From Sedimentisphaerales bacterium (GTDB taxonomy: Bacteria; Planctomycetota; Phycisphaerae; Sedimentisphaerales; SM23-30), in the NCBI GenBank assembly GCA_963663965.2, contig CAXXFK010000007.1, positions 128,001-192,000 on the forward strand: a stretch of 64,000 bases of DNA, given 5' to 3'. Position numbers and translations under genes: made by a program. Under the pieces are notes generated by a model. That model worked only from the letters and a program-made list of their open reading frames with translations, made no database searches and was not told the DNA's origin. Shown here piece after piece: positions 40,524 through 49,379 of this stretch. The first letter of the stretch is position 1. Each line of letters starts with the position of its first letter.

Positions 40524-42359
40524 TTAAAAATCAACATCCATGGCGAGTTTGTGTTTACGACAGTAATCGATGATTTGATCGACGAACTCGCGGCCGTACT
40601 GATCGAGTTTTTTCTGGCCGACGCCGTTGATTTCGAGGAAATTGGCGAGGGTGGAGGGGCGGCGGCGGGCCATATCGCGGAGGGCGGCGTCGCCGAAGAT
40701 GAGATAGGCCGGGAGATGGCGGTCCATGGAGATGGTCTGGCGGAGCAGGCGGAGCTCTTCGAACAGGCGCTGGTCGACACCCTTCCAGGAGTCCTGGGCG
40801 AGTCGTGGTTTTTTCTTTTGAGTTCTGGCCTGTTTGCGGTCGGGCGGCATGAGCAGGCGCGGGGTGTGTTGGCCCTTGAGAACCTGGTAACCCTGCTCGG
40901 TTATGGTGAGGGTATTGAATTCGCCGGTTTTGACCAGGCAGCCTTGCGAGGCGAGTTGTTCGATCCAGGTTCGGACGGCGTGTTTGGGCTGCTGGGCGAG
41001 CAGGCCCCAGGTGCTGAGTTCATCGTGCCGGGCGCTGAGGATGCGCTGGTCTTTGGAGCCGGCGAGGACGGCGGCGGTATAGTCGCCGCCGAAACGCTGT
41101 TCGAGCCGCCAGACGCAGGAGATGATTTTCTGGGCGACGACCAGCGAGTCGGGCATGGCGGTGAAGTCGCCGATACAGATATCGCAGGCGGCACAGTTGG
41201 GTTTGTCGAGCTGCTGACCGAAGTAATGGAGCAGGGCTTGATGGCGGCAGGTGAGACCGGCGCAGTAGTTGTACATGTCGTTGAGTTTTTGCCGGGCGAT
41301 ATTGGCGGGTTCAGGATCGAGGTCCTGCATGAGGAATTTCCAGATATTGAAGTCGTTGCCGCCGTAGAGCAGGCAGCATTCGGCTTCAAGCCCATCCCGG
41401 CCGGCCCGACCGGATTCCTGCTGATAGTGTTCGATGGATTTGGGCATACCGGTGTGGATGACGTAGCGGACGTTGGGCTTGTCGATGCCCATGCCGAACG
41501 CAACGGTGGCGACGACGATTTTGGCGCGATCGTTGATGAAGTCATCCTGATTGCGGCGGCGGTCAGGGTCGTCCATGCCGGCGTGATAGGGCAGGGCACG
41601 ATGGCCGCGGGTTTGAAGGTTGGCACACATTTCATCCACATCCCGGCGGCGGATGCAGTAGATGATGCCGGATTCGTTGGGATAGCGCTGGATGATGGCT
41701 TCGACCTGGCGGTTGAGATCGCGGCGGGATTCGGTTTTGTAGAGCAGGTTGGGCCGGTCAAACGAACCGACCAGGATTTCGGGATTATTGAGTTTGAGTC
41801 GTTCGACGATATCGGAACGGACCTGTTCGGTGGCGGTGGCGGTGTAGGCGTGGATCCCGACGTTGGGGAAGCTGGTTTTGAGTCGGTCGAGCTGGCGGTA
41901 TTCGGGGCGGAAGTCGTGGCCCCACATGCTGATGCAATGGGCCTCGTCGATGGCGATCATGGAGAGCGGCAACTGGCCGAGAAACTGGATGAACCAGTCG
42001 GAGACGAGGCGTTCGGGAGACATATAGAGGATTTTGATTTCGTGGTTGGCGGCGCGCCGGATTATTTCGCGATTGAGGTCGCCGGACTGGCTGCTGTCGA
42101 TACGGGCGGCGGAGATACCGCATTCGATGAGGGAGTCGACCTGGTCTTTCATCAGGGAGATCAAGGGCGATACTACTACGGCCAATCCATCCAGCGCCAT
42201 GGCCGGGGCCTGAAAGCAGAGCGATTTGCCCCCGCCGGTGGGCAACACCACCAGCGAATCACGGCGCCCGGCGGCGGCGAGCATGGCCGCCTGCTGCATG
42301 GGTCGGAAACTGTCGTAACCCCAGTAGCGTTTGAGGATGGTTTTGAGGGTGTCCAGCAT
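40524..42359 (-). CDS. recQ: ATP-dependent DNA helicase RecQ
   Basis: PTGGGKSLC, IDEAHCIS.WGHDFRP, VATVAFGMGIDK, QESGRAGRDG; Zn-RQC and HRDC regions. Confidence 0.96.
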   Translation of the reverse strand: MLDTLKTILKRYWGYDSFRPMQQAAMLAAAGRRDSLVVLPTGGGKSLCFQAPAMALDGLAVVVSPLISLMKDQVDSLIECGISAARIDSSQSGDLNREIIRRAANHEIKILYMSPERLVSDWFIQFLGQLPLSMIAIDEAHCISMWGHDFRPEYRQLDRLKTSFPNVGIHAYTATATEQVRSDIVERLKLNNPEILVGSFDRPNLLYKTESRRDLNRQVEAIIQRYPNESGIIYCIRRRDVDEMCANLQTRGHRALPYHAGMDDPDRRRNQDDFINDRAKIVVATVAFGMGIDKPNVRYVIHTGMPKSIEHYQQESGRAGRDGLEAECCLLYGGNDFNIWKFLMQDLDPEPANIARQKLNDMYNYCAGLTCRHQALLHYFGQQLDKPNCAACDICIGDFTAMPDSLVVAQKIISCVWRLEQRFGGDYTAAVLAGSKDQRILSARHDELSTWGLLAQQPKHAVRTWIEQLASQGCLVKTGEFNTLTITEQGYQVLKGQHTPRLLMPPDRKQARTQKKKPRLAQDSWKGVDQRLFEELRLLRQTISMDRHLPAYLIFGDAALRDMARRRPSTLANFLEINGVGQKKLDQYGREFVDQIIDYCRKHKLAMDVDF

Positions 42360-42462
42360 TGTGGGGTATTATCGGGGAAATGGATGGAGAAGTCAAATTA
42401 TGTGTGGAATCATTGAGGGCCGTGCATTGATATGCCTGTTGAACGGGATTAAGAGGTAGCCA

Positions 42463-42855
42463 TTATATTTTTTCAATTTTCGGGACGTTGCCGATGAATC
42501 TGACCTGGGAATTGGGTTGAAGCGGGACGCGCTGATCGAGGGTATCGGGCTGGTAGTTGTCGATGAGGACGTAGAAGTCGTTGTTGAGGAAGCAATTGAT
42601 GGTGTTTCTGATTTCCGCTTTCCATTCGTCTTTGGTGGGGCGGCCGGAGGCTGAAGGGGATTTGTGTTCGGCATCAGGAGTGGCGTCGCCGGATTGGTTC
42701 GACTGGAGAAGATGTTTCATCATGCGGTTTTCTAAATCCTGAAAGTGCCGTATTCGGATCAGATCACGTACGGTAGTTCTTTTGGAATCGAGATCCAGAA
42801 CGGTTTCGTGGATGAGCTGGCCGGAGGCGGTTTCGTCACGGATGGTTATGGGCAT
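42463..42855 (-). CDS. Ubiquitin-like (beta-grasp) protein paralog lacking the C-terminal GG
   Basis: Aligns end to end with 46618-47016 (ITIRDETASGQ, TVRDLIR, FLNN.F.VLID..QPDTLD) but ends VPKIEKI. Confidence 0.65.
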   Translation of the reverse strand: MPITIRDETASGQLIHETVLDLDSKRTTVRDLIRIRHFQDLENRMMKHLLQSNQSGDATPDAEHKSPSASGRPTKDEWKAEIRNTINCFLNNDFYVLIDNYQPDTLDQRVPLQPNSQVRFIGNVPKIEKI

Positions 42856-42986
42856 TGGGTCCTCTTTTCGGTTTTATTGTTTCGAGCGGCGCTTGCGATG
42901 CACGGAACGGTTGTTTAGACATATACGGTTTCATTGCCATGAAGGTGGTCTAAAATCGCATAACGGGTCGATATCTATCTGATTCT

Positions 42987-43015
42987 ATTATGGTCAAAAG
43001 AGGAGGCGATGTCAA
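42987..43015 (-). promoter_or_regulatory. Sigma70 promoter for the GG-less Ubl paralog
   Basis: Minus strand TTGACA-N17-CATAAT. Confidence 0.6.
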
Positions 43016-43048
43016 ACTGTTGGTGTTATCTATTTGCATTTTATAGGG

Positions 43049-46000
43049 TTAAGGCTTTATTTGTTGGGTGATGGTTGGGTCGGTAATGCGGGTGTCGTCC
43101 GCCAGCAGCAGGGCTTTGCTGATGATAATGGAGAGCAGGCTGTCGCCTTCGAAGGGCAGGAAGAGTTTATCCTGGCCGGTCTGGCTTTTGACGGTGACGA
43201 TACACAGATACTGATCGTTGGGCTCCATGAGGATATTGCCGCTGCCGAGGTGGATTTTGTAGGTACGCAGGTCGCCGCGCACGATGAGGAATTTGTCGCG
43301 GAATTCGCAGCGGTCGGCGATTTTGAGGCGGGGAATGAGGTTTTCGAGTACCTGTTTGCGGGTTTGGGCCGTTTCGCCCAGAGCGCCAAAGGAGATATCG
43401 TACCAGTAGTTGCGGTAGCGGCCGTCCGGGCCGCCGTCCTGCCATTGGGGATCGTTGCCGATGCTGGCGACACCGACAAACAGGTCGATATCGCGCATGA
43501 CTTCGGAAAAGGGCCGGGCCGGGATGGATTCGAGCGGGATGGGGGCGACGGTGTGGACCTGGCCTCCTTCGCCCCAGCCGTGCCCGGTGGCCTGGGGGGC
43601 GTTAATCGGGAAAAAGCGGACCTGATCGGTGGCCAGGTAGGGATAGGTTTCGAAATAGCTGTCATCGTTTTCATCATTAACGCCATCGGTCCAGAACTCC
43701 GCGCGGAGGTTCCATTGGGGTAACATGATCGTTGCGGGCGGAAAGTCCTGATCGACGGCGAGTTTGAGGGTGTTTTTCCAGCCGCGGGCACCGCAGAGCG
43801 AATTGAACTGGTGCTGTTTGACGATATGGGCGGCATAACGATTGGAATAGATGGCGGTCTGGCGTTCGGCATCGGTCAGAATATAAATTTCGCGGTGGGC
43901 CTGTTTGAAGGGCTGTTGGATCTGGTGATCCTGTAAGCATTGCCGCCATTGCATTATAGTATCCGCTTCATGGCCGATGGGGTGCCAGAGCCGCACGGGG
44001 GTTGTATCGGGCAAGGTAGGGAGGGATTGGCCGGAACTGTCGACAAGTTTGCCATCCAGCCATATCGCACTGAGCCATTGGTTGTCCTGTTGGAATTCCC
44101 AGATCAATCGCCGGGCCAGAAAGCCGACCAGGGGGTGATCGAGGTAACGTTCGCGCCAGATCGATAGCGGCCAGGTTGTTTCGGTCAGATAGATGCTTTC
44201 GATGCGGGCTTTCTGGGCCGGCAGCATCTGCTGCATTTCTTTGGCAGCGGTTTTGAGTTCTTTGAGTTCATCCGGGAAATCGGATTTGACGGCGGCCGGG
44301 ATGGATTTCTGGGTTTTGCCATCCGGCTTGAGCCAGGTTAATTCCGTTGTGTTGGTGCCGGTGATTTTGAGTTGAGCGGTGAAGTCGCCCAACGATTCTT
44401 CGAGCAGACCGACCTGTTCCATGCCATAGGCCGGCACGCTCATCTCTTCGAGTTCGGCGCGAGTAATGCCCTGTTGGGCGGCGGCTTCATTTAAGGCTTT
44501 GTCGATCAGTTTGAGCGCGGTACGGAAGCGAACTTTGGTATTGAGAATGGCCAGTTGGCGCAGACTTATATCATCGTTCATGGCGCCCAGCGCGTAGATG
44601 CAGGCGTTGCCGATTTTGACGGCGCGCGGGCCGATACCGGGAATTTTCTTATATGCGTCGATGGCCAGATTTCTCAGGGTTGTCGCCAGGTCACTGTTCT
44701 TGAACCGACTGCAACACCAGATCAAACCCTTCAGGATGTCGCCGTTGCATTCGCTGAAACCGTAATCAACCGAAATATCATATTGAATAATCTCTATCAT
44801 TCGGCTTTTATATTCCTGATTATCGCGGGCCGTGCTGCATCCACTACTGGCTCGTATTATCAAGGTTTTTCCGGGCGTCAGGTTCTTATCTTCCAGATTC
44901 ATTTTCCGAATCTGGCCTTTAAAGTCGGCTACGTCAATCGATTCAATTATTTCAAACGCTTCCTGGCTTACGGTTGTCAGATATTGCTTCTGATGAGCCA
45001 TTGTGGCCCAGTTCAGCCATTGAATGATGCGTGTAACAAAGTCACTTTCACCAATCTTTTGCAGGATTTCGTCGGTCTGTTTGAGCCATTTTTGAGAAGG
45101 CGAGCCAGTTTTAGTTGAAAGACAATGATCCAGTAAGGCGACCCAATTAGAAGCCCCTTTGTTTTTTATTATGGATAAATCGCGCATTACATTTTCTGAC
45201 CAGGCGCTTCCTAATTCAATTGGCAAAGATTTGCAATTTAAGATTTCTTCCAGTATTTTCTTTATATTAATTTGGCTCTTATTCAGTACCACATTTTTCA
45301 ATGGTTCCAGTATTGAAAGGAGGGCCTCCCTTACTACATCCGACATATTATTATTCTGATAAAATGCGACAATTTTTTTTAATAACCGCAATTCGATTTG
45401 TTTATCATGTGTTATGATAGACTTTAAGTATAATTCATAATATTCAGAATCATATGGCAACTTCTTTTTTTCTAAAGATTCTATTAGGCAGTCTAATTCG
45501 CTATTGAATAAGCTATACCATTTTCGATAAACAATATGATTATCCCATTCTGCTTTTTCACCTATTGAAGCATTATTATACCACTGAGTAATTTGAACCA
45601 ACCTAAAGTAATATGCCTTTAATATATTTAACCAATCAATCGGTGATGCCTTTAAAATTTTAATGATAGATTCAATTTTACACTCATCTTTATCGATTGA
45701 AAAGAATGTTTGCATACAGCGCATGTCTGAATAAGTAGTTCGGAATTCTTCTGCAACATCTTTAAGAAAAGCGCATCCGCTTGCCAGATACCCCGATATT
45801 CCATTATTCCAGTATATTGGATCAATTTGTTTCAGGTCAACAAGAAACATGCTGTCATATGTATTGTTAATTTCGTCTCTTTCGGGCATCTTGGCTTTGA
45901 AGCTTCCATCTAAAAAGCTTTCAATCAGTTTACAAAATCGCTTTAACTCGGGGTTTTGGGGATCTTGTTCATTAATTGCAAATATCACCGCTTCAAGCGA

Positions 46001-46552
46001 TGCTTGAATAGTTTGTGGCAAGTCGTTTTCCATAAGAAAGCGTGATAATGATTTAAGAAGACCATGTATTGGAACAGACGCCATTTTTCCCCAATATGCT
46101 GTAATAGGGGGATAATGGGAAAAGTTGGTTGGTCTTGATTTCGTAGATAAGCCAAGAAGATATTCGTAATCGTCAACCTGAAATGATATTTCGCGAGTAA
46201 AAATAAACTGCAATAGTATCTGAAAGAAACCGCACCAAGAAAATGCCAGAGTACCGTGTTTTAAAGGCCAGCCTTCCTGGTTCAGTCTTTCAACCAGCGC
46301 AAGTGCTACACTTGCTAGTTCGTCGGGCGGCATTTTTACGATAGTATCTCTGGCAGAATAATCATCAAGAACAAAATCGAAAGCTCCTTTAATCGGGCCG
46401 TTTTCCAGATAATGATTATACGCCTCCAAGGTTAATTCATCCAGAACTTGATGACCTGCTAAAGAACGAGAAGTATAATAATAATAAACAGTATCAAGTT
46501 TAATATCAGGCCGGTTCCCTCGAATCGTTTTCATCTCAATATCGTTTTGCAT
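43049..46552 (-). CDS. DUF4132-like protein with a variable AT-rich helical N-terminus
   Basis: C-terminal half WRERYLDHPLVG..ARRLIW, VRLWHP, QPFKQAHREIY, FSEVMRDIDLFV is typical of DUF4132 proteins. Confidence 0.8.
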   Translation of the reverse strand: MQNDIEMKTIRGNRPDIKLDTVYYYYTSRSLAGHQVLDELTLEAYNHYLENGPIKGAFDFVLDDYSARDTIVKMPPDELASVALALVERLNQEGWPLKHGTLAFSWCGFFQILLQFIFTREISFQVDDYEYLLGLSTKSRPTNFSHYPPITAYWGKMASVPIHGLLKSLSRFLMENDLPQTIQASLEAVIFAINEQDPQNPELKRFCKLIESFLDGSFKAKMPERDEINNTYDSMFLVDLKQIDPIYWNNGISGYLASGCAFLKDVAEEFRTTYSDMRCMQTFFSIDKDECKIESIIKILKASPIDWLNILKAYYFRLVQITQWYNNASIGEKAEWDNHIVYRKWYSLFNSELDCLIESLEKKKLPYDSEYYELYLKSIITHDKQIELRLLKKIVAFYQNNNMSDVVREALLSILEPLKNVVLNKSQINIKKILEEILNCKSLPIELGSAWSENVMRDLSIIKNKGASNWVALLDHCLSTKTGSPSQKWLKQTDEILQKIGESDFVTRIIQWLNWATMAHQKQYLTTVSQEAFEIIESIDVADFKGQIRKMNLEDKNLTPGKTLIIRASSGCSTARDNQEYKSRMIEIIQYDISVDYGFSECNGDILKGLIWCCSRFKNSDLATTLRNLAIDAYKKIPGIGPRAVKIGNACIYALGAMNDDISLRQLAILNTKVRFRTALKLIDKALNEAAAQQGITRAELEEMSVPAYGMEQVGLLEESLGDFTAQLKITGTNTTELTWLKPDGKTQKSIPAAVKSDFPDELKELKTAAKEMQQMLPAQKARIESIYLTETTWPLSIWRERYLDHPLVGFLARRLIWEFQQDNQWLSAIWLDGKLVDSSGQSLPTLPDTTPVRLWHPIGHEADTIMQWRQCLQDHQIQQPFKQAHREIYILTDAERQTAIYSNRYAAHIVKQHQFNSLCGARGWKNTLKLAVDQDFPPATIMLPQWNLRAEFWTDGVNDENDDSYFETYPYLATDQVRFFPINAPQATGHGWGEGGQVHTVAPIPLESIPARPFSEVMRDIDLFVGVASIGNDPQWQDGGPDGRYRNYWYDISFGALGETAQTRKQVLENLIPRLKIADRCEFRDKFLIVRGDLRTYKIHLGSGNILMEPNDQYLCIVTVKSQTGQDKLFLPFEGDSLLSIIISKALLLADDTRITDPTITQQIKP

Positions 46553-46617
46553 ATAGTCATTTTCCTCAAATCCAGATTATATTCGGGGTATCATATTAAT
46601 GATATTTCTTCATATTC

Positions 46618-47016
46618 TTATCCCCCAACCAGCGGCACCAGTCGAATAAAGCTGACCTGGGTATCGGGGCGGAGCTGGATGCGTTCATCGAGTGTGTCGG
46701 GCTGGCGGGCGTCGATGAGGATGAAGAAGCGGTTGTTGAGGAAGCCGTCGATGGCTTTTTCGAATTCGGCTTGCCAGTCGATTTCTTTCCGGTGGGATTT
46801 GCGGGGCGGGTTGAGTTGCTGTTCCAGGTGGGCCTGGGGGACAGGACCGTTGGCGGCGGGCTTTTCGGTTCGGAGTTTAAGGTTATGATCCTGCACTTCC
46901 TGATAGACCCGTTCGCGAATGAGTTCGCGGACGGTGATTTCTTCGGTGAGGAACTCAAGGACCATTTCATTGGTGATCTGGCCGGTGGCAGTTTCATCAC
47001 GAACAGTAATCTGCAT
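46618..47016 (-). CDS. Ubiquitin-like (ThiS/MoaD-type beta-grasp) protein with C-terminal diglycine
   Basis: Ends LDERIQLRPDTQVSFIRLVPLVGG; AGGAGG RBS; directly upstream of the DUF4132-like gene. Confidence 0.72.
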   Translation of the reverse strand: MQITVRDETATGQITNEMVLEFLTEEITVRELIRERVYQEVQDHNLKLRTEKPAANGPVPQAHLEQQLNPPRKSHRKEIDWQAEFEKAIDGFLNNRFFILIDARQPDTLDERIQLRPDTQVSFIRLVPLVGG

Positions 47017-47039
47017 TGTCGTACCTCCTGTTGATCTTC

Positions 47040-49379
47040 TTAATCTTCGGTAATTCGGGTGGTTTTTCCTGGCTGAGCGAGTTTCAGGTTGATTTTGCCG
47101 GTGTCGATCGTTGGCAGGGTAGCGGTTAAGGTGGTGTTGTTGGGTAATCTGGCTTCTAGTGTAAAACTGCCGGATTGGCGGGTGAGTTGAGTTTCGACTG
47201 GGATTGGTTGATCACCTTTGCCGATCCGGTATACTGTGATGAATTCCATTTGTTTATTTTTCTGCGGGGTGGAAGCTGTGAGGTGCCATTCGCGCAGGGT
47301 GACGCGTGGGCGCGGGTTGGGATCGTACTGATCGGTCTGGGCAAAGGTCAGGCCGGCGGGGTAAAGGAAGTCGATATCACAGCGAATCTCGTCGTTGCGG
47401 ACGATAATCTGGTGCTGATCGATGATATCCATTTTGTTGATGGCGTGGAGCCAGTATTGATATTCGGAAGGTTCGCGGGCGCGGAGCCGATCGTAGACGA
47501 TCATGAGGTCGGGTTTGACGAAGATAATGGCGCGGCGGAACTGATCGAGCGGAGTGAGGTAGGCGCTGCCGGCTTCGCCGATCACCAGATCCATTGCGGG
47601 CGTGGTCTGGAAAAATTCGATATTGCCCTGGGCCTTGCTGGTTCTGAAGCCCTGGCCTTTGCCATTAACGGTGATATTATTGACGGAACGGGTGGACCAC
47701 ATCCATTTGCTGTGATGTTCGCTGCCGTAGCTGTCGCGTTTACCGGAGCGAATAAGCAACCGCTTGCCGTAGGCGGAGAGCAGGAAGGAGTTGTTGGCTT
47801 CGTAGCCGTGGCTCTGGGTACCGAAGGGACTGGATTTGAAGGCGATTTGAGTTCCAGTCTGGGCGTCAAAGATCTGGGAATTGAGATAGGCCTGGCCAAT
47901 CCCGGCGAACAGGCGCGACGTGGGCAGGTCAGTTGGCGCAGCGGCTCGAACGGCAGGCAACGCGCCGCGGATAAAGCCGATATAGCCGCCGGTTTCGACA
48001 GGGCCGCCGTTCTGGTCCACCCACCATTGCCAGTTGGAATTGCCGGCCTGGGTGGTAAAAATAGTCATGATTTCACGGAAGCTACGGGAGGTTTTGTCGG
48101 CACAGAGATCGCCAAATCCTCCGCCAATTTTACCGGGGGGCATGAGATAGAGCATGTAGTAGCCAACCTGGGAATAGTAAGGTTTGTCAAACGCATCGAT
48201 TCCCATGGCTTCACGCATCACATCAGCCCACCAGGTAAAACGGGCCTGGTAGCTGGACCAATAGGATGAGCCTTCATGCCAGCCGCCATCATCATCACAC
48301 CAGACAGGGTAGGTGTTATAGAAGACATTCATGGCGAACCAGAGCCAGTCTTCGGCGCCTTCGATCTCACCCATGAAGGCGATGGCCACTTCGCCAAGAA
48401 AATGCCAGGCGCGGTTGGAGTGGCTGGAGTAGGGTTGCCAGAGGTGGCTAGGGCAGAGAAATCGGTACATCTCTTCGCCGCGAATTTTCATGACCTGGCG
48501 ACAAATGGCCTTTTCTTCATCAGAGAGCAGGTCATTAACGAATGAATAGGTGCGGGAGAAATAATAATTATAAGGCATGCCGGCTTCGTCGTTATAGCGG
48601 TAACCAGTGCTGCCCTTGGGATCCCATTTGGCACATTCCATCAAAATCCGCCGGGCTTCCTGGCCGTATTTTTCGGGACCACCCAACAGGCGAGTGAAGG
48701 CCAGGGTTGCGGCGCTGTCGAGCGCTTTGATGGTATAGGTACGGTTGCCCCACCAGATTTCGCGCCAGGGATCGCTGTTGCGAACGATGTCTTTGGGGTA
48801 CAGGGGCGGCTCAGTAGTGTCGGGTGGATTTTTGAGGAGATTGTCGCAGGTTCTGATCAGTTTGTCATATTGGGGTTTAAGGGAGCCCTGGGCCAGGGTA
48901 CGGAGTTTGTTGAGGTTTTCCGGTCGAAGGAAGAGGCGCGGGTGACCGGTGGGGATACGTCTGAGTAACTCCGCACGGGGGGGCATGGGCATGGCAACGG
49001 AATCTGGTGTAATGGTGAACGATCGAATCTGGCTCCAGTCGGAGGCGGCGCTGTTTTTGTCAACGGCCCGGTAGCGCCAATAGTAGCGGCCGGGATTGAA
49101 GGTTTGGGTCGGGCAATGGACATTGAACTCAAGTTGGGTGGCAGAATAAATTGCCGGCTGAAAATTAGTGTTGGGGCTGATTTGCAGTTCCCAGGTGACG
49201 TTTTTCTGTGGGCGCCAGGAGAATGATGGGGGATTGACTGCTGAAGTAGTCTGGTCAGCCGGCCGATAACCCCACTGGCCGGGTTGGGACGGGGATTGAT
49301 CGAGGGTGAGGGCGAAGGTCAATTGGACCAGCGATAAACTAATTAGCGCGATATTAAGCAGTTGACGGATACCAGACAT
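47040..49379 (-). CDS. DUF4962/heparinase II-III-like polysaccharide lyase
   Basis: Signal peptide; HPRLFL, DGGWHEGSSYW and SHGYEANNSF motifs. Confidence 0.75.
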   Translation of the reverse strand: MSGIRQLLNIALISLSLVQLTFALTLDQSPSQPGQWGYRPADQTTSAVNPPSFSWRPQKNVTWELQISPNTNFQPAIYSATQLEFNVHCPTQTFNPGRYYWRYRAVDKNSAASDWSQIRSFTITPDSVAMPMPPRAELLRRIPTGHPRLFLRPENLNKLRTLAQGSLKPQYDKLIRTCDNLLKNPPDTTEPPLYPKDIVRNSDPWREIWWGNRTYTIKALDSAATLAFTRLLGGPEKYGQEARRILMECAKWDPKGSTGYRYNDEAGMPYNYYFSRTYSFVNDLLSDEEKAICRQVMKIRGEEMYRFLCPSHLWQPYSSHSNRAWHFLGEVAIAFMGEIEGAEDWLWFAMNVFYNTYPVWCDDDGGWHEGSSYWSSYQARFTWWADVMREAMGIDAFDKPYYSQVGYYMLYLMPPGKIGGGFGDLCADKTSRSFREIMTIFTTQAGNSNWQWWVDQNGGPVETGGYIGFIRGALPAVRAAAPTDLPTSRLFAGIGQAYLNSQIFDAQTGTQIAFKSSPFGTQSHGYEANNSFLLSAYGKRLLIRSGKRDSYGSEHHSKWMWSTRSVNNITVNGKGQGFRTSKAQGNIEFFQTTPAMDLVIGEAGSAYLTPLDQFRRAIIFVKPDLMIVYDRLRAREPSEYQYWLHAINKMDIIDQHQIIVRNDEIRCDIDFLYPAGLTFAQTDQYDPNPRPRVTLREWHLTASTPQKNKQMEFITVYRIGKGDQPIPVETQLTRQSGSFTLEARLPNNTTLTATLPTIDTGKINLKLAQPGKTTRITED

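Follow-up and report, generated by a model that had tools for sequence, protein, structure and literature searches.

How would a bacterial ubiquitin-like protein with a free Gly-Gly be charged, and to what would it be passed, when no gene for an activating enzyme (E1) lies beside it? The question is raised by a 64,000-nucleotide stretch of a Sedimentisphaerales bacterium genome (phylum Planctomycetota; assembly GCA_963663965.2, contig CAXXFK010000007.1, positions 128,001–192,000), hereafter the window, in which a gene for a 132-amino acid ubiquitin-like protein (Ubl), a gene for a 1167-amino acid protein with DUF4132 and DUF7737 domains (the partner), and a diverged copy of the Ubl gene lie together. 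A first-pass annotation had read these genes as a compact ubiquitin-like system, possibly anti-phage, with the large protein as activator, ligase, or target. The gene pair is a real, widespread two-gene module. We put at roughly 0.5 the probability that it is a ubiquitin-like thioester or conjugation module, in which the partner would contribute a built-in domain resembling a conjugating enzyme (E2) and a swappable target selector.

A widespread gene pair

The C terminus of the Ubl is VSFIRLVPLVGG (last residues PLVGG), with the Gly-Gly free. The AlphaFold model of the protein (predicted local distance difference test, pLDDT, 84; alignment of 116 rows) has the beta-grasp order and an insertion made up of a long helix (residues 29–50), a low-confidence loop, and an extra helix (81–93). 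In the rows of a wide structural search, 66–94 of the 132 residues were aligned; together with the added helices, this makes real the roughly 45-amino acid insertion relative to plain sulfur carriers that had been noticed at first pass. The top structural match was 8r7n_B (Z 8.8, root-mean-square deviation [rmsd] 2.6, 85 aligned), followed by the small chain of molybdopterin synthase at Z 8.4, tied with ubiquitin-like chains, and then by matches at Z 8.0. SAMP1 (Z 7.0) and ubiquitin (Z approximately 7) also matched, ubiquitin-fold chains occurred throughout the ranking, and Foldseek likewise returned ubiquitin folds at weak E-values, in keeping with the beta-grasp fold that had been predicted. 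Judged from this model, the fold alone does not tell a modifier from a sulfur carrier. Neither the Ubl nor its paralog had a family match in Pfam (ThiS included), NCBIfam, or PADLOC. The terminal Gly-Gly, whose conservation the annotation had made a test of its proposal, is present in 120/120 listed Ubl homologs and in 139 of the 150 best of 2245 Ubl profile matches; the other 11 appear truncated or frameshifted.

Linkage was assessed in 79 genome loci, the best of 561, which are related and partly redundant. A DUF4132 match lay within 1.5 kb of the Ubl gene on the same strand in 72 of the 79 (Ubl first in 62, second in 10). Of the remaining seven loci, three break off no more than 633 bp from the Ubl, one carries a fragment at a distance of 2 kb, and in three the Ubl is an orphan. 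This tight linkage supports the earlier view of the DUF4132-like protein as a dedicated partner. No third gene recurs across the 79 loci (no cluster exceeds eight loci, shadow frames aside), and no biosynthetic or sulfur-supply neighbors of the MoaE, ThiG, or CysM type are recurrent there. Among 301 genomes of the same phylum, DUF7737 was found in 20, the Ubl in 18, and both in 14; in 14/14 of the latter the two were adjacent by coordinates. Clustered at 50% identity, the matches to the Ubl profile number 2245, and members of the family occur in Planctomycetota, Verrucomicrobiota, Cyanobacteria, Acidobacteriota, Gemmatimonadota, Bacteroidota, and Deinococcota. A search of 40 close relatives of the source organism, many of them incomplete, did not find the Ubl, and therefore the module looks recently acquired. 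Two groups were distinguished: group I, to which the window pair belongs, and group II, mostly proteins of 1550–1800 amino acids with a DUF5724-DUF4132-DUF7737 architecture and a distant Ubl.

Some loci depart from the simple pair. In L025 (10397–20381) and L033 (10406–19466), a single Ubl gene is followed by four and three DUF4132-DUF7737 paralogs, respectively, of differing lengths, an arrangement like an array of interchangeable receptors with one common tag. Three Gly-Gly Ubl copies, one of them a 67-amino acid fragment, lie upstream of one partner gene in L058 (8471–11320). A Fulvitalea plasmid record (L254, 1–7170) carries one pair of each group, divergent and back to back, the Ubl of the group II pair ending in GSTY. 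An Acetobacter plasmid record (L157, 5459–8257) has a DUF4132-DUF7737 protein without the cysteine described below and no Ubl gene, with toxin-antitoxin neighbors on a mobilizable plasmid. P0186 (969 amino acids) was considered as a partner-Ubl fusion and rejected; it reads as a frameshifted call because conserved C-terminal motifs are missing.

By its sequence, the partner gene is mosaic, joining a conserved core to a cassette of foreign origin. Residues 1–440 are encoded at a GC content of 0.35 (0.32 at third codon positions), compared with 0.57 (0.71) for residues 601–1167. This N-terminal region is unconserved in the alignment of partners, and the search for its homologs among 7998 candidates of 641–2043 amino acids returned only itself. 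We infer that it is a candidate sensor or target selector. A model of residues 770–1167 reached pLDDT 82.5. Within it, residues 900–1031 resemble TBP, KA1, and YugN folds (best 2pww, Z 7.2, rmsd 3.6, 102 aligned), a likeness of middling Z that may reflect a common fold arrangement only. Polar residues of the core, among them E888, R1020, and D1023, are invariant in all Ubl-linked groups and different in one MoxR-type sequence. Further upstream in the partner, at window positions 44597–44645 (residues approximately 636–651), is the stretch KKIPGIGPRAVKIG, conserved in group I partners only; it resembles a helix-hairpin-helix DNA-binding motif, and a Pfam search of the partner gave no helix-hairpin-helix match.

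The DUF7737 cysteine and the Ubl tail

The C-terminal end of the partner, residues 1059–1167 (model residues 281–398), was covered by 26 of the top 50 structural rows. By title, 23 of these 26 were E2, UEV, RWD, or FANCL chains, with Z 4.3–5.0 obtained within a 398-residue model, rmsd 3.0–4.4, and 74–97 residues aligned. Among them were UBE2S (Z 5.0, rmsd 3.6, 94 aligned) and, at Z 4.3, a chain from a bacterial E1-E2-Ubl complex. BilB, a proven bacterial E2, matches human E2s at rmsd 3.2–3.4 over 93–99 residues (PMC10557695). Sequence profiles give the likeness no support: there was no E2-family Pfam match in 70 DUF7737 members, the HPN tripeptide is absent, residues 1030–1167 yielded no E2 kinship from the ESM Atlas (own two families skipped), and PDB sequence searches yielded none either. 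Cys1117 is kept in 197/204 distinct DUF7737 segments and is placed by the model past the last strand, ahead of two closing helices. DUF7737 can thus be described, on the model, as a loosely E2/UBC-shaped domain with a near-invariant cysteine. A Cys-His-Asp triad of C1117, H1101, and D1137 was weighed but rejected, as 8/13 Cys-bearing group II partners have Asn in place of H1101.

The presence of this cysteine varies together with the Ubl tail. A Ubl gene was counted as paired when a DUF7737 partner that could be read lay no more than 1.5 kb away; some of these loci are near-duplicates, and most of the 80 metagenome loci were left out of the pairing as too short. Group I gave 81 pairs with both Gly-Gly and the cysteine, plus one (L063) whose Gly-Gly is followed by 13 extra residues. 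Reading L063 as a Gly-Gly loss was rejected, the Gly-Gly being present and capped. The 31 group II pairs comprised 13 with Gly-Gly and Cys, 9 with Gly-Gly and no Cys, 9 with neither, and none with Cys and no Gly-Gly. In total, therefore, 95/95 Cys-bearing pairs retain Gly-Gly (one capped), and 9/18 Cys-less pairs have lost it, their Ubl tails reading GA, GRLW, GRMW, or GSIW. On a tree of 33 partners the cysteine is ancestral and was lost at least twice, and the Gly-Gly losses are confined to Cys-less branches. A third position, Gln105 of the Ubl, follows the same pattern. It is present in 120/120 and 137/139 members of the group I sets; in group II, it is found in 13/13 Cys-bearing pairs versus 1/15 distinct Cys-less pairs, and it is also missing from 25/27 group II Ubls that have no Gly-Gly. 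The cysteine is absent from four of six DUF7737 genes whose loci contain no Ubl. This co-variation is the strongest argument for covalent chemistry. Together with the E2 shape and Cys1117, it narrows the role first proposed for the partner, as activator, ligase, or target, to that of a probable E2-like thioester acceptor.

Charging of the Ubl and competing explanations

If the pair is a conjugation module, the C terminus of the Ubl would first be adenylated, the simplest agent being a MoeB/ThiF-family housekeeping enzyme that acts in trans. The Ubl would then form a thioester with Cys1117 and move on to a lysine of a target or of the partner. Choosing the target or sensing the trigger would fall to the swappable N-terminal cassette, in place of a ligase (E3), and the trigger would probably be stress or an invader. 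The paralog, which lacks Gly-Gly, cannot undergo C-terminal conjugation and is a local modulator at most. A bolder version, which we regard as quite improbable, is an E1-free two-protein ligase, with the DUF4132 core activating the Ubl, DUF7737 forming a new class of E2, N-terminal cassettes serving as E3-like selectors in stress or anti-invader responses, and one branch being non-covalent and Cys-less.

Several observations weigh against a conjugation module. A search of 185 Ubl loci (2.1 Mb) gave no E1 and no canonical E2; the same E1 profile, as a control, finds E1s in 10/30 canonical-E2 loci. Bil and Bub, by contrast, each come with an E1 of their own (PMC10557695, PMC11601596). The E2 matches of DUF7737, at Z 4.3–5.0, sit in a range that the search tool calls common; Foldseek returned no E2 match in PDB or BFVD, and hhalign of DUF7737 against 16 genome-derived canonical bacterial E2s gave a probability of 0.07, within the shuffled range of 0.07–3.8. 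The placement of Cys1117 at the E2 catalytic position is putative, and Cys-bearing group II partners do not conserve Asn1106. One of three runs of the complex model described below scored 0.01. In group II, 18/31 pairs keep both genes without the cysteine, and therefore the pair has some activity that is independent of a thioester. Kinship and redundancy of the loci make the counts overstate independence. Finally, DR_A0166, the partner homolog in Deinococcus radiodurans, is absent from the co-immunoprecipitation file of PMC9650054.

With no linked E1, canonical E2, or other gene, the Ubl must be activated either in trans, as is simplest to suppose, or by new chemistry, for which the DUF4132 core is the bolder candidate. 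The source genome, 94.6% complete, carries three ThiF-family genes, all outside the window, which best match MoeB/ThiF, TcdA, and ThiF models at scores below the curated cut-offs; its single ThiS is on another contig. The absence of an E1 from the window, claimed at first pass, thus holds. So does that of a JAB protease, with no Prok-JAB match anywhere in the genome. The claimed absence of an E2 stands insofar as the genome contains no recognizable E2 (no UQ_con match), but the partner itself appears to end in an E2-shaped domain. A JAB regular expression was also applied to the Ubl loci and matched nothing; the result is uninformative because the control loci also gave nothing. Elsewhere in the phylum, canonical E2 genes occur in 40/301 genomes, with an E1 nearby in 10 of the 30 loci fetched (L122–L151), and 4 of the 20 DUF7737 genomes (G054, G079, G126, and G285) also carry a canonical E2.

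Modeling of partner residues 445–1167 with the Ubl gave a median score of 0.37 (runs 0.01, 0.37, and 0.41) against 0.00 for the best control, with contact agreement of at least 26% and partner pLDDT of at least 61. The mark applied is reached by 116/157 solved and 2/215 mismatched pairs; at scores of 0.60 or less, it is reached by only 18 solved pairs and both mismatched ones. This result weakly supports binding of the Ubl to the partner. The docking of the Gly-Gly tail in a pocket, which the annotation had envisaged, is not shown by it, and the interface is not given.

The persistence of Cys-less pairs, linked in at least two lineages, would be accounted for directly if the Ubl were a stable subunit or regulator in a non-covalent complex, its tail docking in a groove of DUF7737 or the thioester chemistry having become vestigial. 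The missing E1 linkage would fit as well, as would the paralog, which is kept under some purifying selection despite its lack of Gly-Gly. However, covalent chemistry would be expected to preserve Gly-Gly and Gln105 strictly in just those pairs that retain the cysteine, as is observed, and we consider a purely non-covalent role unlikely, though credible. A MoeB/ThiF-like gene in the genome, a Gly-Gly that is free with no protease, and a molybdopterin synthase small chain as second-best fold match, tied as noted, are also what one would see if the Ubl were a sulfur carrier, thiocarboxylated by a housekeeping MoeB/ThiF enzyme and a sulfur donor and passing sulfur via Cys1117 to a substrate of the partner. 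We doubt this clearly more, since the 79 loci hold no recurrent third gene, biosynthetic or sulfur supplying, and since a hypervariable N terminus and absence from 40 relatives are unlike cofactor pathways. In addition, moeA and moeB were not co-induced with drA0165-0166 (PMC8533742).

The lack of any linked E1 leaves room for chemistry in the partner itself, either activation of the Ubl by the DUF4132 core, whose polar residues such as E888, R1020, and D1023 separate the Ubl-linked groups from the MoxR-type sequence, or action of Cys1117 on Gln105 as a transglutaminase or deamidase, to which the co-variation of Gln105 with the cysteine would correspond. No nucleotide-binding fold was found for residues 770–1167, though, the variability of His1101 argues against a triad, and glutamine chemistry leaves the strict Gly-Gly unexplained; such a mechanism appears distinctly improbable. 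The coupling of cysteine to Gly-Gly would arise equally if the reaction ran in the reverse direction, with DUF7737 a cysteine hydrolase stripping the Ubl from conjugates made by the housekeeping E1 alone, and the genome has no JAB protease match. DUF7737, however, matches E2-fold chains rather than protease folds, and the catalytic histidine is not conserved, which makes a hydrolase very improbable.

Genomic setting, regulation, and related systems

All three reading frames proposed at first pass are confirmed, on the minus strand (Table 1), as is the strong ribosome-binding site of the Ubl gene. By Pfam, the module is flanked by a heparinase-like gene on one side and recQ on the other. The recQ gene (window 40524–42359) is on the same strand, downstream of the paralog, and has its own promoter-like site; a RecQ-like gene is also near the module in L001, probably by chance, as this is non-recurrent across the 79 loci. 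Positions 41500–47817 are spanned by one Logan contig with zero letter differences, a match that is not independent because the contig probably represents the source sample.

Table 1. Coordinates of the module and its parts in the window
Feature	Position	Strand	Remarks
Ubl gene, 132 aa (P0001)	46618..47016	minus	Gly-Gly codons 46621-46626; Gln105 codon 46702-46704
Ribosome-binding site of Ubl gene, AGGAGG	47024..47029	minus	7 nt ahead of ATG; read from sequence
DUF4132-DUF7737 partner gene, 1167 aa (P0002)	43049..46552	minus	Pfam domains
Variable N-terminal cassette of partner, residues 1-440	45233..46552	minus	AT-rich, homolog-less
DUF4132 domain of partner, residues 745-925	43778..44320	minus	Pfam, E 1e-50
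TBP/KA1/YugN-like alpha-beta domain of partner, residues ~900-1031	43460..43855	minus	Structural search of model
DUF7737 domain of partner, residues 1062-1165	43058..43369	minus	Pfam, E 9e-43; Cys1117 codon 43202-43204
Sigma-70-like promoter upstream of paralog, TTGACA-17-CATAAT	42987..43015	minus	Consensus match only
Gly-Gly-less paralog, 130 aa (P0003)	42463..42855	minus	42% identity to Ubl

The third gene was rightly recognized as a clear paralog of the Ubl. Its product ends in PKIEKI and has lost several conserved helix residues, with Gln105 kept. The two genes share 76% DNA identity over 135 nt (dN 0.47, dS 0.88). The promoter-like site ahead of the paralog, a consensus match only, has 11/12 matches and is the best of 18 sites. 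The paralog cannot be a C-terminal tag because Gly-Gly is absent, and no Gly-Gly-less paralogs were seen in the 79 other loci, so the idea of a second working tag is unsupported. From its sequence, the gene is a local duplicate and no core part of the module, possibly a decoy or a decaying copy.

The suggestion of an anti-phage function is neither supported nor refuted. PADLOC has no match for the module; of the flanking proteins, 14/137 (142 picked) had a PADLOC match, mostly kinases, helicases, and other generic domains and with no baseline for the count, which gives no defense-island signal. Searches of viral contigs did not turn up the module; three pattern matches there proved to be chance hits in one kind of phage, lying outside genuine reading frames. 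Its patchy spread and exchangeable N terminus fit a role in conflict.

A connection with DNA damage comes from D. radiodurans, in which DRA0165 is a Ubl ending in ALAGG (E 1.5e-13 to the profile) and DRA0166, which follows it, is a DUF5724-DUF4132-DUF7737 protein with the cysteine; by sequence, this pair is a true distant member. DRA0166 rises after mitomycin C in an IrrE-dependent manner, and the operon is under DdrO/IrrE control (PMC8533742); the DdrO box listed in that article was found upstream of the Ubl gene in L155. PMC9650054 describes an antioxidant phenotype of a DR_A0165 deletion and no DdrO box. In RefSeq, DR_A0165 has 134 amino acids (L155, 3634–4038) and is a whole Ubl; the UniProt entry used in PMC9650054 has 83 and lacks the N-terminal third, so that study probably used a protein without the first two strands and helix. 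Its co-immunoprecipitation negative is given little weight. The word "ubiquitin" does not occur in the main texts of PMC8533742 and PMC9650054, which treat the function as unknown.

Further candidate operators lie upstream of other members. The palindrome GAAC-N4-GTTC, which we take to be a LexA box, was present in 9/86 upstream regions versus 1.0 expected, with 8 of these from one group II clade. A second palindrome, AGAACA-N2-TGTTC, lies upstream of the Ubl gene in eight loci (L187, L193, L194, L200, L221, L233, L237, and L248), mostly just behind a TATAAT-like hexamer, and is likely, on this sequence pattern, to be a repressor site. DNA-damage control is not shown for group I because four LexA-type motifs occurred in 0/82 upstream regions and a fifth in 10/82 versus 6.0 expected.

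The closest parallel among known systems is Bil (BilABCD), which has a beta-grasp Ubl, a divergent E2 with a conserved cysteine, and no E3, and whose BilB matches human E2s about as loosely as the DUF7737 model does (PMC10557695). Bil, however, encodes its own E1, a JAB-family deubiquitinase, and a processed Ubl, whereas the module described here has no linked E1- or E2-family gene, its Ubl ends in an already exposed Gly-Gly, the E2-like domain terminates an 800–1700-amino acid protein, and PADLOC returns no match. Bub and CBASS Cap2 also use diverged bacterial E2 chemistry on Ubl-like substrates (PMC11601596; Cap2 in PMC10557695), but with an operon E1 and, in Bub, oxyesters and a peptidase-E1 fusion, none of which was seen here. 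Because an operon-encoded E1 is absent, the module is not Bil, Bub, or CBASS. The Ubl also resembles MoaD, ThiS, and CysO and the SAMP, Urm1, and TtuB proteins in its fold (Z 6.5–8.4; 5mpo, 4hro, 1vjk, and 4n6e) and free Gly-Gly; it differs from these sulfur carriers and dual-function Ubls in its approximately 45–50 extra residues, the lack of a linked biosynthetic gene, and its dedicated, cysteine-bearing partner. SAMPs and TtuB rely on a shared MoeB-type activator that acts in trans. The D. radiodurans pair differs from that of the window in its group II architecture (1626 amino acids, DUF5724). MolR/YehI-type WGR-DUF4132 proteins of MoxR-vWA operons have the DUF4132 core in common with the partner. 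In one MoxR-linked locus, on a Streptomyces plasmid, the protein stops before DUF7737, has AAA, DUF5682, and vWA neighbors, and is without a Ubl; MoxR AAA, DUF5682, and vWA genes were not found beside the DUF4132 gene in the window or the 79 loci.

Our literature search found no article naming DUF7737, PF24879, or PF13569, and none on DUF4132 that concerned Ubls, as judged by titles and the start of abstracts. Nor did it turn up any account of these two genes as a Ubl system; its reach stopped short of subscription papers and of supplements on bioRxiv, and the supplement tables of the Bil and Bub studies could list the genes. If the conjugation reading is right, it would add a widespread family to bacterial ubiquitin-like conjugation, and both DUF7737 and a large class of DUF4132 proteins would gain a first function. 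As there is no E1, unlike in Bil, Bub, and Cap2, it would also raise the matter of how charging of a Ubl proceeds when the operon encodes no activator. The proposal is testable: D. radiodurans has a Cys-bearing member with a known inducer, and the residues that would matter, Gly-Gly, Gln105, and Cys1117, are identified.

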